Origin: Octopus vulgaris
Lineage: Eukaryota
Length of the DNA stretch: 64,000 nucleotides
NCBI GenBank assembly: GCA_951406725.2
Contig: OX597824.1
Location: 80,538,001 to 80,602,000 of the forward strand
Reading direction: 5' to 3'
Shown: positions 33,867-63,535 of the stretch, piece after piece
Position numbering within the stretch: position 1 is the stretch's first letter
Layout: each line of letters begins with the position of its first letter
Notes under the pieces: generated by a model
What the model was told of the DNA's origin: nothing
The model's database searches: none
What the model saw: the letters and a program-made list of their open reading frames with translations, nothing else
Translations under genes and position numbers: made by a program

Positions 33867-34278
33867 AGGCGCAGGAGTGGCTGTGTGGTAAGTAGCTTGC
33901 TTACCAACCACATGGTTCCGGGTTCAGTCCCACTGCGTGGTACCTTGGGCAAGTGTCTTCTACTATAGCCTCGGGCCGACCAAAGCCTTGTGAGTGGATT
34001 TGGTAGACGGAAACTGAAAGAAGCCTGTCGTATATATGTATATATATGTGTGTGTGTGTGTGTATGTTTGTGTGCCTGTGTTTGTCCCCCAAGCATTGCA
34101 TGACAACCGATGCTGGTGAGTTGACGTCCCCGTCACTTAGCGGTTCGGCAAAAGAGACCGATAGAATAAGTACTGGGCTTACAAATAATAAGTCCCGGGG
34201 TCGAGTTGCTCGACTAAAGGCGGTGCTCCAGCATGGCCGCAGTCAAATGACTGAAACAAGTAAAAGAGAAAAGAGAGA
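33867..34278 (+). mobile_element. SINE family B, full length
   Basis: Head, internal TA/TG tract and tail are all intact. Confidence 0.93.
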
Positions 34279-36029: not shown

Positions 36030-36284
36030 CTTAGGAGTTAACATACGTAACTTGTTTGTCCTCTCTGTGTTTAGCTCCTTCTGGGTAATAAAAAGAAATA
36101 GGTATTTCGTCTGTCGTTACGTTCTGGGTTCAAATTCCGCCGAAGTCGACTTTGCCTTTCATCCTTTCGGGGTCGATAAATAAAGTACCAGTTTCCAACT
36201 GGGGTCGATGTAATCGACTTAATCCCTTTGTCTGTCCTTGTTTGTCCCCTCTATGCTTAGCCCCTTGTGGGCAGTAAAGAAATA
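36030..36284 (+). mobile_element. SINE family A, tail plus tandem body unit (no head)
   Basis: Junction aaagaaataggtatttcg at ~36100. Confidence 0.85.
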
Positions 36285-36497
36285 CGTAACATGGTGAAAT
36301 ATATGGATAATTCAAAAATATATATTTGTGTGGTGTGACCGATAGAGAGATAAGTAAATATATATTTGTCATATATTCAATAAATAAGATATTACAAAGA
36401 TAACTGAAAATAAATATGATGCGCGATAAATATATAGAGAGATGTATGAGTTGTTAACATATAGGCGCAGGAATGGTTGTGTGGTAAGTAGCTTGCT

Positions 36498-38709
36498 AAT
36501 AGTTGCTTCTGCGCATGTGCGAGTCAGTGTTGTGTTTGGCACTGAAGCGGTGAAGACGTGCTTTTGAAGCCGTCTTGAATTGAAAATTTTGGAAGCCCCA
36601 TGTAAGGTAAGATTCTGTTTTCTGGGTCCAGTGGGAGTTTTTGTTGAGGATTGTTTTTTACAGGCAGGAAGTCCTACTGGATTCAGAATTCTGATTCTGC
36701 CGACATGTGGCAAATATATTTTTCTCGCTGAATTGTGAAAATTTTTGGGGGGCGTATCCGTCTTCGATAAATTGAGTGAATATTTTTCTCGCCTAATTAT
36801 GAGAATTGTATTGTGCTGTGACGAACTTTAAGAATTGTGAAAACTGTTATATAGGAGAGTGTTTTGCCTCCGAAGTTTGAACAATTTTTACCAATTTTAC
36901 ACCAATTTTTGCGGAAGTTGTGTTCCAGTTGCGGCGTTCCGGGTTCAATGTAGGCCGGGAGTACCGAATGGCCAGAAGGTTTTTGCTGTGTTATTGACTT
37001 TCTTTTTAACTTTATTTGACTTTCTTTTTAACTTTATTTGACTTTCTCCCCTTTTCACCGTGACTTTCTTCTGATTTCCTTTTCTTCTCGTTTTTTAATT
37101 TTATTTTGAATACATTTAAAAAAACCCAAAAAAAACAAAAAAAAAACAAAAAAAAAAACATGGCAATGAAAAATAACAAACTTTTGGAATGGGAGATCAT
37201 ACCGCCTAAAAAGTGGTTAAAAGACCGTGAAGATAGGACGGTGGTGTTGAGAACCTACTCCAAGGCACTCGACACCATCGCCCTATTCGAAAAGACGGCA
37301 ATTGAAAAGGAGTTGGAAGAGTATTTGCCAACAATTAAATTCAGTTCCAGGGGTGTCAAATATGCAACGGTGTGGTTGCTATTTGACACCCCTGAAAGGC
37401 TTGCAAATTTGCTAGCAAACCCCTGGAGGGTAAGGAAATCTTATTCCTGCCCACGTACAAAAAAAAGAAATTGATGAAAGCTTGGATTTGCGGGCTGCCA
37501 CCCGACATAGAACCCGAGTGGATAGAGGAGACTATCCGCCGGGGTCTGGGTGGCAGCGAAACTAAGATCCTTAATGTAAAAGTTCTTCCTGCGGCTGCTT
37601 GGGTTAGGTCAAAAGCAATTTTGACCCTGTGGACCCAATCAGCCAATCTGGTTCTTCCAGAGTTTTTGAAAATGGCCGGGTGCAGGTACCCGGTGATGCT
37701 TGAGTCGCCCCCCTAAGTGTCATCGGTGCTTGGAGTCCGGCCACATAAAGAAGAACTGTCCCCGGGAACAAAATAGGATCCCGGAACAGTTAAGTAAAAC
37801 CCCTCTAGAAGAGGGAATGACAACGGCCGAGAAAGCAGAGGACTCCTCAAACAGAGGCCGAAAGAGGAAGGTGAGCAAAAATGGGTGCTCACCAAAGGAT
37901 AATAGGGATGAGGAGAGGAAGGCGAATCTTCCGGCCAGGGAGGAGACGCACCCTCCCTCAGTTGAAAAGGGGAAAAAAAAAAAGAGGAAGAAAAACGGGA
38001 CATTGCCGGCTGTCGGTGACATAGCACCGGAATGTCCCGGAACTACGTCGGTTGGGGTTGTGCCACCGACACGAGAAGAATACCGTTGGCGGGAACTGTG
38101 CCGCCAACGAAAGAACTGAAGGTATTGGTCCTCTTCTATAGAGGAGGTGAAATTGAAAAGGTGATGGAAGAGTACCACAAGGGAGCACCTTTAGCCTTCA
38201 CACAGGACCCCGAATGGCCTCCGCAGGTAGCTGTGGAGGCCGTGGCGTTCGACGTAACGCTTGGGCTAAAGGAGCTCAATGAAGATTATAACTTGGTCCC
38301 GGGCGACGCAAACTCGGAACTTGATTACGTTCTGAGGGAGGCGTGGTTGATGGTGGAGGGCGCGGGCACAAGCTATTTCGAGGACGATATGTAATTATTG
38401 AACTGTTATTATTAGTAATGGACTGCTAAGTCCAAAAATTGAAACATTGTAAGAGGTTTAATACCTCGTTTTGTAATAATGGACTGCTAAGTCCAAAAAT
38501 TGGAAAAATTGTAAGAGGTTTAATACCTCGTTTTGTGTTTATCTTTAAAAAGAACAATGTTTTAGAGAAGCGAAAGTCGGCGGGCGCTTTTTGTCTTCTC
38601 CCATCCTTATCATCTTTCTTTCATTATCATTCACTTCATTAATGTCCTCGTCCAGCCCGCAAAGCTAACTTAATCTGTGTACTGCCTTTATGGCAAATGT
38701 TTTGAAATA
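36498..38709 (+). mobile_element. ORF1-only non-autonomous non-LTR retroelement (HAL1-like, L1/Tx1 type)
   Basis: Perfect 12 bp TSD aagtagcttgct (36486, 38710). The 5' end has tcagt..gacgtg (Inr/DPE-like) and the 3' end is aataaa. Encodes a CCHC-knuckle protein only. Confidence 0.8.
37160..38394 (+). pseudogene. Gag-like ORF1 (CX2CX4HX4C zinc knuckle), ~412 aa if three small frameshifts are corrected
   Basis: MAMKNNK..DRTVVLRTYS..TPE / ACKFASKPLEGKEILFLPTY..AWICGLPPDIEPEW..YPVMLE / RPPKCHRCLESGHIKKNCP..basic region.. / IPLAGTVPPTKELK..FEDDM*. Confidence 0.8.
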
Positions 38710-39344
38710 AAGTAGCTTGCTTACCAGCTACATGGTTCCGGGTTCAGTCCCACTGCGTGGCACCCTGGGCAAGTGTCTTCTACTATAGCCTCGGGCCGAC
38801 CAAGTCCTTGAGAGTGAATTTCGTAGACGAAAACTGAAAGAATATATATATATATATCGCTTGACAACTGATGCTGGTGTGTTTACGTCCCCGTAACTTA
38901 GAGGTTAGGCAAAAGTGACCGATAGAATAAGTACTAGGCTTACAAAGAATAAGTCCTGGTGTTGATTTGCGCGACTAAAGGCGGCGCTCCAGCATGGTAA
39001 CAATCAAATGACTGAAACAAGTAAAAGAGAGTAAAAGAGTATATTTAATGCAGGGAACAAGAATATTGTTGTAATTCGGGACGGTCATATTTTTTTCCAA
39101 ATAAACACACGCACTTTATATTCGTTCTTCACTCGTTCATTACTGCTCTTATCTTAACTCATATCTATTGCGCAGAGATTCCAAGACGATGGATATGAGT
39201 TGAAATAAGGACAGTAATAAATGAATGCAGAACGAATGTATAGTGCGTATTATTATTTGGCAAATAATAATAATAATTATAATAATAATAATAATAATGA
39301 TAACAACAGCAACAGCAACAACAACAGCAACAACAACAATAATG

Positions 39345-47945: not shown

Positions 47946-48364
47946 AAGGCGGCGAGCTGGCAGAAACGTTAGCACGACGGACGAAATGCTCAGTGGTATT
48001 TCGTCTGCCGCTACGTTCTGAGTTCAAATTCCGCCGAGGTCGACATTGCCTTTCATCCTTTCAGGGTCGATAAATTAAGTACCAGCTACGCACTGGGGTC
48101 GATATAATCGACTTAATCCCTTTGTCTGTCCTTGTTTGTCCCTTCTATGTTTAGCCCCTTGTGGGTAGTAAAGAAATAGGTATTTCGTCTGTCTTTACGT
48201 TCTGAGTTCAAATTCCGCCGAGGTCGACTTTGCCTTTCATACTTTCGGGGTCGATTAAGTAAGTACCAGTTACGCACTGGGGTCAATGTAATCGACTTAA
48301 TCCGTTTGTCTGTCCTTGTTTATCCCCTCTATGTTTAGCCCCTTGTGGGCAATAAAGAAATAAG

Positions 48365-58073: not shown

Positions 58074-58678
58074 AGGCGGTGAACTGGCAGAAACGTTAGC
58101 ACGCCGGACGAAATGCTTAGCGGTATTTTGTCTGCCGTTACGTTGTGAGTTCAAATTCCGCCGAGGTCGACTTTGCCTTTCATCCTTTCGGGGTCGATTA
58201 AATAAGTACCAGTTACGCACTGGGGTCGATATAATCGACTTAATACCTATTTCTGTCCTTGTTTGTCCCCTCTGTGTTTAGCCCCTTGTGGGTAATAAAG
58301 AAATAGGTATTTTGTCTGCCGTTACGTTGTGAGTTCAAATTCCGCCGAGGTCGACTTTGCCTTTCATCCTTTCGGGGTCGATAAATTAAGTACCAGTTGC
58401 GCATTGGGGTCGATGTAATTGACTTAATACCTATGTCTGTTCTTGTTTGTCCCCTCTGTGTTTAGCCCCTTGTGGGTAATAAAGAAATAGGTATTTTGTC
58501 TGCCGTTACGTTGTGAGTTCAAATTCCGCCGAGGTCGACTTTGCCTTTCATCCTTTCGGGGTCGATAAATTAAGTACCAGTTACGCATTGGGGTCGATGT
58601 AATCGACTTAATACCTATGTCTGTCCTTGTTTGTTTGTCCCCTCTATATTTAGCCCCTTGTGGGTAATAAAGAAATAA
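58074..58678 (+). mobile_element. SINE family A, one head plus three tandem 184 bp units
   Basis: Units start at 58122, 58306 and 58490. Confidence 0.92.
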
Positions 58679-58838
58679 GTACTTCGTACTTATAAGAAAT
58701 AAGTACTTCGTACATTCTGAGTTAAATTTCCTCCAAGGTCGACTTTGCCTTTCATCCTTCCGGGGTTAATAAAATTAAGTACATTTGGGTATTCATAAAT
58801 TATTGGGAATTCTTAAAAACAAGATGTTGTGTAAGACA

Positions 58839-62659: not shown

Positions 62660-63535
62660 AAGCAGCGAGCTGGCAGAATCGTTAGCACGCCGGGCAAAAT
62701 GCTTAGCGGTATTTTGTCGTTACGTTCTGAGTTCAAATTCCGCCGAGGTCGACTTTGCCTTTCATCCTTTCAGGGTTGAGAAATTAAGTACCAGTTACGA
62801 ACTGGGATCAATGTTTGTCTGTCCTTGTTTCTCCTCTCTGTTTAGCCCCTTGTGGGTAATAAAGAAATAGGTATTTCATCTGCTGTTACGTTCTGAGTTC
62901 AAATTCCGCCGAGGTCGACTTTGCCTTTCGTCCTTTCAGGGTTCAGAAATTAAGTACCAGTTACGAACTGGGATCAATGTTTGTCTGTCCTTGTTTCTCC
63001 TCTCTGTTTAGCTCCTTGTGGGTAATAAAGAAATAGGTATTTCATCAGCCGTTACGTTCTGAGTTCAAATTCCGCCGAGGTCGACTTTGCCTTTCATCCT
63101 TTCGGGGTCGAGAAATAAGTACCAGTTACGAACTGGGGTCAATGTTTGTCTGTCCTTGTTTCTCCTCTCTGTTTAGCTCCTTGTGGGTAATAAAGAAATA
63201 GGTATTTCATCTGCTGTTACGTTCTGAGTTCAAATTCCGCCGAGGTCGACTTTGCCTTTCATCCTTTCGGGGTCGAGAAATAAGTACCAGTTACGAACTG
63301 GGGTCAATGTTTGTCTGTCCTTGTTTGTCCTCTCTGTTTAGCCCCTTGCGGGTAATAAAGAAATAGGTATTTCATCTGCCGTTACGTTCTGAGTTCAAAT
63401 TCCGCTGAGGTTGACTTTACTTTCATCCTTTCGAGGTCGATTAAATAAGTAACAGCTACGCACTGGTTTCGATCTAATCGACTGCCCCCACCCCGCCCAA
63501 GTCTCGGGCCTTATGCCAAGAGTAGAAAAGAATAT
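62660..63535 (+). mobile_element. SINE family A, one head plus five tandem ~165 bp units
   Basis: Units start at ~62708, 62870, 63036, 63201 and 63366; the last unit carries the alternative tail. Confidence 0.9.

Follow-up and report, generated by a model that had tools for sequence, protein, structure and literature searches.

What is the 2.2 kb segment that interrupts a SINE in this stretch of the Octopus vulgaris genome, and how did it come to be there? An initial annotation of the window (the whole 64,000 nucleotides analysed) had read it as an ORF1-only retroelement that moved as a unit, splitting a SINE between perfect 12 bp target site duplications (TSDs). The insert is 2212 bp long (forward strand, 36498..38709), and the SINE that it splits is also present in the window in empty form, at about 33869-34270: deleting the insert and one copy of AAGTAGCTTGCT regenerates the SINE as it stands there. 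Both copies of AAGTAGCTTGCT are in place (forward strand, 36486..36497 and 38710..38721), but 12 bp is inexact as a TSD length across the family, because the 5' junction bears element-specific, target-like bases. On the same strand, the empty copy defines the 5' part of the host SINE, its head (36464..36485), with a motif that we take, by eye and against a consensus, to be A-box-like; the remainder (38722..39039, the end being approximate) holds one at 38741-38751 that we take in the same way to be B-box-like. The SINE head had no tRNA match in Rfam.

Within the insert, all on the forward strand, a 662 bp 5' UTR (36498..37159), one of at least four types on the same ORF1 body, is followed by ORF1 (37160..38394), with a CCHC zinc knuckle at 37718..37759, and by a 315 bp 3' UTR (38395..38709). 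This anatomy agrees well with what had first been proposed: a 5' UTR of about 660 bp with Inr- and DPE-like motifs, both of which are present; one gag-like ORF with a CCHC knuckle; and neither endonuclease nor reverse transcriptase (RT). A Pfam search of the insert gave neither enzyme, and its sole match was zf-CCHC, below the cut-off (E 0.0034 for the insert, E 0.0076 for an intact 413 aa ORF). The 3' UTR has the proposed length of about 315 bp and contains a 61-62 bp internal duplication (about 38413-38536), but it does not itself end in AATAAA; that motif spans 38706-38711, and its last two A are supplied by the TSD. No poly(A) tail was found at the 3' end of the insert, and an LTR or DNA transposon is ruled out by the lack of long terminal or inverted terminal repeats in it. 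ORF1 is 413-414 aa long in intact natural copies and is broken here. Relative to L004, a natural copy with an intact 413 aa ORF1 that is 97.8% identical to the window copy, the frame breaks after 37396, 37704 and 38078, and 3 nt are missing after 37980. A presumed-RNA run, its RNA nature being a guess, covered 8 of 30 bins of the window stretch, mostly in SINEs, which says nothing for or against expression; runs labelled as two other organisms covered 30 and 29 of the 30. Joints skipping the window insertion were seen, and these may derive from other SINE copies.

The insert is one of hundreds of copies, itself dead and frameshifted. A DNA search of the 2.8 Gb genome with the element gave 3328 candidates, and the 40 that were scored included 9 other end-to-end copies at 93-98%, as expected of a multi-copy family of about 2.2 kb with the same ends; many of the 40 carry other 5' UTRs. 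Searching with ORF1 gave at least 150 matches, all those listed having at least 84% identity. Fifty-two distinct loci of the family to which the insert belongs (family A) have a length of about 2.13-2.28 kb wherever both junctions could be located; the copies analysed are the best-scoring ones rather than a random draw. None of the 52 has ORF2 inside the element (two ORF2 matches at L011 and L073 fall in the flanks), and at 30 loci of older subfamilies a search out to 1.5 kb from the match found no ORF2; in 24 of the 30 a 3' junction was called (3 of these apparently spuriously). With ORF2 inside 0 of 82 ORF1-only loci, the possibility that all other copies contain it and that the window copy is a one-off deletion is ruled out. 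The family-A frame is intact (413-414 aa) in 9 of the 52 copies. Among named proteins the closest, at 64% identity, is from Octopus sinensis and is uncharacterized. In that species a 281 aa relative (P0002) is annotated as the host gene LOC115225585, which is probably a copy of the ORF1-only family. Separately, a 94 bp element at L035:1400-1530, at the same SINE site, consists of nothing but the 5' start and the 3' tail of the family; it is possibly an ORF-less derivative.

ORF1 has been under purifying selection in the source lineages. Across 51 copies, with changes present in exactly two copies left out, those common to at least three comprise 45 synonymous and 23 nonsynonymous changes (dN/dS about 0.15), against 72 and 188 among singletons (dN/dS 0.75; Fisher p 1e-8 for shared versus singleton changes). 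The dN/dS comparison proposed with the initial annotation thus bears out a selected ORF. Comparisons with other ORF1-only copies gave values of 0.08-0.28 in 11 of 11 cases, and the nine of these made with copies of diverged ORF1-only subfamilies gave 0.09-0.28 at dS 0.9-2.3. Marks of A-to-I editing were not seen in family A (singletons A>G 26, T>C 26). These results bear on whether the insert could instead be an internally deleted full LINE, a decayed LTR element or a host gene. The window copy is indeed frameshifted, its CCHC knuckle resembles retroviral nucleocapsid motifs and a relative is annotated as an uncharacterized gene in O. sinensis; nevertheless, hundreds of copies have the same length, ORF1 is selected although no ORF2 accompanies it, neither long terminal nor inverted terminal repeats are present, and homology to a LINE ORF1 is clear (E 5e-17), so that we give such origins a negligible probability.

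The ORF1 layout comprises predicted tandem RRMs, the CCHC knuckle, a basic linker and an acidic C-terminal part. An AlphaFold model of residues 1-215 (pLDDT 77) best matched tandem-RRM proteins such as hnRNP A1 UP1 (E 6e-5, with a low TM-score of about 0.3), and the knuckle follows the RRM-like units; ORF1p is predicted to be an RNA-binding protein with two RRMs and a CCHC. Among PDB structures, L1 ORF1p was unmatched up to E 5. Mammalian L1-type ORF1p has a coiled coil, one RRM and a CTD, and the L1-type tail is poly(A). The octopus family is therefore HAL1-like in the broad sense, with ORF1 but no endonuclease or RT at 52 + 30 loci, with copies that have spread with constant ends between target duplications, and with an ORF1 homologous to LINE ORF1 and kept by selection; in the strict sense of an L1-type ORF1p plus a poly(A) tail it is not, having two RRM-like units and a CCHC, and no poly(A).

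Every copy lies in the same SINE context, as it would if a single insertion had spread as a SINE composite or by segmental duplication. We compared elements and hosts in 50 copies, 2 of the 52 being excluded for a missing junction. The host SINE halves (mean p-distance 0.085) are somewhat less diverged than empty control SINEs (0.125), in keeping with such spread, but they do not track the tree of the elements, which themselves differ by 0.025 on average: by a Mantel test the two sets of distances are uncorrelated (r -0.03, p 0.66). Among element pairs, the 20 closest are 0.07-0.4% apart, whereas their host SINEs differ by 3-13%, and by 30-33% in pairs that include the truncated host L089. Near-identical copies in SINEs this far apart are therefore independent insertions. 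Moreover, the site is shared by 5' UTR types unrelated to one another, by subfamilies separated by a dS of more than 1 and by full LINEs, no SINE head lies between stacked units, and the 5'-truncated copies L053 and L059 retain the SINE head. Because the host SINEs do not follow the element tree, we reject composite SINE-plus-insert spread, and we consider spread of a single insertion by any such route very improbable. The claim of an ORF1-only family that moves as a unit stands, with many fixed-end copies, independent insertions and selection on ORF1.

One prediction failed. Copies had been expected to share their ends and to differ in their TSDs, and the TSDs are instead near-identical, because every copy occupies the same SINE site. 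This single-base target specificity, overlooked in the initial annotation, is the more unusual feature of the family. The same SINE base is found at the 3' end of all 30 of the best loci. A pattern of the last 18 bases of the element, with no target sequence in it, matched 221 family-A 3' ends; of the 100 listed, all run into the SINE site. The exact junction, including 26 SINE bases, occurs at least 476 times and the exact empty site at least 59,332 times, an occupancy of about 0.8%, both counts being lower bounds; within the window the target site has 10 matches against 0 expected. Private SINE variants are present in duplicate, on both sides of the element, in L069 and L089. Where the first 12 junction bases match, base 13 is A/A in 26 copies, A/T in 4, T/T in 2 and T/A in 0, and the 5' junction tends toward the element's own version of the target. 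In L064 a 16 bp duplication is followed by a second, element-borne target copy. Such junctions suggest that the element RNA starts with target-like bases, which would aid second-strand joining.

An element that encodes no endonuclease or RT raises the question of whose it uses. Thirty junction loci on one contig, sorted by eye, comprised 20 ORF1-only tails, 9 tails of a second type and 1 of neither, and ORF2 sequence was found at 8 of the 9 second-type loci. The second type is a LINE of 5.43-5.46 kb, with an ORF1 of 466-467 aa and an ORF2 of 1133 aa that contains Exo_endo_phos, RVT_1 and zf-RVT domains and has human L1 ORF2p as its best solved relative (E 1e-66). Both frames are intact in 3 of the 8 young copies examined (L171, L173 and L177). 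Its 3' end gave 114 matches, of which 98 of the 100 listed lie at the SINE site, and its 5' flanks (n=30) include 26 SINE heads and 3 element ends. This LINE has two features of the Tx1 clade: an ORF2 with an APE endonuclease, an RT and, at its C-terminus, the zinc finger of the L1 group, and sequence-specific insertion into a multicopy repeat. No named Tx1 reference is among 113 homologues. An older-looking variant of the SINE, AAGAAGCTTGCTTCC, hosts older members of both the ORF1-only and the autonomous kind (L189, L190, L209-L211, L215 and L218). A head-to-tail array of full LINEs lies at G000:C9:2664543-2675451, where three autonomous 3' ends follow one another at intervals of 5.42-5.45 kb. 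The evidence supports an ORF1-only, multi-copy, non-autonomous family with a conserved ORF1 and an autonomous relative of L1/Tx1 type.

The relationship between the two is not close. Over 195 residues the partner ORF1 and the ORF1-only protein share only about 29% identity (the E 5e-17 match above), and a tree of 17 ORF1 rows splits ORF1-only from autonomous lineages with 100/100 support. The ORF1-only lineage therefore predates the radiation of the autonomous lineages sampled; its direct ancestor is unfound, and an unseen LINE could be the helper. Indeed, several autonomous lineages whose ORF1 is 50-75% identical to that of L091 use the same site, and except for its last 40-60 bases the ORF1-only 3' UTR is unlike that of any of them. 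A helper other than the young 5.45 kb family, whether a diverged L1/Tx1-type LINE at the same site or an unsampled one, nevertheless seems unlikely to us: the young family has intact copies whose ORFs are 97-99% identical, and its youth matches that of ORF1-only copies that are 0.07-0.4% apart; one further lineage has an intact ORF2 (L179). We thus favor the 5.45 kb LINE as the partner.

The two kinds of element share a 3' end structure. Both end in a hairpin with a 4-bp stem and a 5-nt loop, 14-16 bases before the junction (38683..38695, forward strand, in the window). In an alignment of 10 hand-picked rows, with a stem of only 4 bp, both sides change in 3 of the 4 pairs and 95% of cells are paired (2 of 40 break pairing), a level reached in 0 of 500 shuffles; the commonest form occurs in 33 of 44 distinct tails. 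The hairpin is likely to be the recognition signal for ORF2p. It does not set the target, because a second SINE without the target of family A has the same hairpin. This second, abundant SINE (window positions 36051-36099, 36210-36288, 48148-48362, 58275-58680 and 62839-63365) has a tail like that of the autonomous LINE, with the same pyrimidine stretch, 4-bp hairpin and GAAATA end (38 tails were listed); it is often joined head-to-tail to its own head region, and in L025 it occupies the site that the first SINE offers as target. A related LINE of L1/Tx1 type, less strict in its target, probably mobilises it.

Elements of both kinds also stack. Mixed stacks of ORF1-only and autonomous units at a rebuilt site were found at L110, L174, L179 and L181, the SINE head being absent between units. 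An element lies directly upstream in 4 of 52 and 3 of 29 copies, which, set against an exact-match occupancy of 0.8%, gives p about 0.001, but p 0.06-0.07 if the true occupancy is 3%, so that stacking above chance is only suggestive. The element lying upstream has, in 6 of 7 stacks, a tail of one ORF1-only subfamily or one very like it (5' flanks with such neighbours are those of L010, L083, L086, L160, L167 and L075), a pattern that hints at an order of arrival or a subfamily preference for occupied sites. HeT-A likewise forms head-to-tail arrays at a restricted target, a habit that the octopus family shares.

The 5' ends point to how the RNA might begin. In the window 5' UTR, TCAGT (36524-36528) and AGACG (36554-36558) are motifs that we take to be Inr-like and DPE-like. 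In 7 of the 7 listed 5' ends that hold both motifs, which represent about two independent types, the distance from the A of TCAGT or TTAGT to the first base of RGACG is 28 bases. The Drosophila Inr-DPE spacing is one base shorter, and the spacing here would fit an Inr-DPE promoter. In L040, L098 and L102 the duplication starts 29-30 bases away from RGACG, and TAAGT of the target could serve as the initiator. In the window type the Inr-like motif is about 40 bases inside the junction, and a predicted start within the element does not explain how the first bases would be copied. At least four distinct 5' UTRs occur on nearly the same ORF1 body (5' ends L001-L090), which suggests frequent promoter swapping, perhaps within stacks.

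Overall, we are confident that the window insert is a dead member of an ORF1-only family which is old but has spread recently, occupies one SINE base and is likely copied by the endonuclease and RT of the 5.45 kb LINE. Borrowing of ORF2 in trans is suggested by the shared target, the hairpin and the stacks. The element would be transcribed by Pol II from its own promoter, and its RNA would be packaged by ORF1p, with its two predicted RRMs and CCHC. The partner's ORF2p would then bind the 3' hairpin, nick the SINE just 5' of AAGTAGCTT and prime reverse transcription, and the target-like bases at the RNA 5' end would help second-strand joining, rebuilding the site and making stacking possible. 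By separating the A- and B-box-like motifs by 2.2 kb, insertion would inactivate the host SINE promoter and silence that copy. A broader picture, which we hold with slightly more doubt than belief, is an undescribed three-tier system in which a LINE uses the SINE promoter region as a safe harbour and carries an ancient ORF1-only rider. Both would follow the turnover of SINE subfamilies; in some 5' types the target would supply the initiator, so that the RNA would start at the nick, carry the target and rebuild it, while the SINE is switched off copy by copy. As far as shown, none of this bears on octopus host biology. For targeted insertion, an endonuclease this faithful to a single site (98-100%) is of interest. 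Whether a non-autonomous element retains ORF1 for cis packaging of its own RNA or as a service to its partner, as proposed for HeT-A, would become directly testable in this system, in which young copies of the helper as well as of the passenger are intact and the target is a single defined one.

Finally, we compared these elements with known systems. Non-autonomous LINEs that keep ORF1 are HeT-A (Jockey), HAL1 (L1) and Ag-Sponge (CR1) (Kojima 2018, PMC5786205; also PMC5753468), and those named in the consulted sections of PMC5786205 include no Tx1-derived member. As these three are described there, the octopus family resembles them in having ORF1 only, LINE-type ends, many copies, selection on ORF1 and a presumed autonomous partner. 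Unlike them, it has a mollusc host, a strict single-base target within a SINE, an L1/Tx1-type partner, and a hairpin tail without poly(A). If this is right, ORF1-only LINEs would have arisen a fourth time, in neither vertebrates nor insects.

Targets within the Tx1 clade include Tx1D for Xenopus Tx1, U2 for Keno and microsatellites for Kibi and Koshi (Kojima 2015, PMC4494074). In crocodilians, Tx1-Mar, with SINEU passengers, inserts into Mariner-N4_AMi, Tx1-8_Crp and Tx1-4_AMi into LTR elements, and Tx1-9_AMi into Harbinger (PMC4494074). The consulted sections of that paper list no SINE among Tx1 targets, and a SINE would join the list of retrotransposon targets. As far as those sections go, the octopus system shares with the clade an APE-RT-zinc finger ORF2, a CCHC ORF1, a multicopy-repeat target and non-autonomous passengers at the same target. 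It differs in inserting into a SINE head, in having a half-LINE that codes for a protein as its passenger and in a specificity for one base of 98-100%. Thirteen recently active L1-Tx1 families with 421 insertions have been reported in O. vulgaris (PMC13282606), and the elements described here may be among them; the main text of that report, in the parts consulted, makes no mention of target, nested, ORF1 or non-autonomous. Neither a SINE-targeting LINE nor a mollusc ORF1-only LINE was found in the literature consulted, including the relevant parts of PMC13282606, PMC12988792, PMC11203168, PMC4758252, PMC5035012, PMC3747384 and PMC5753468. The O. vulgaris repeat library may already hold both families unnamed. 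ORF1-only LINEs and transposon-targeting Tx1 LINEs are each known; the system described here is real and well supported, and its combination of both kinds is probably new.
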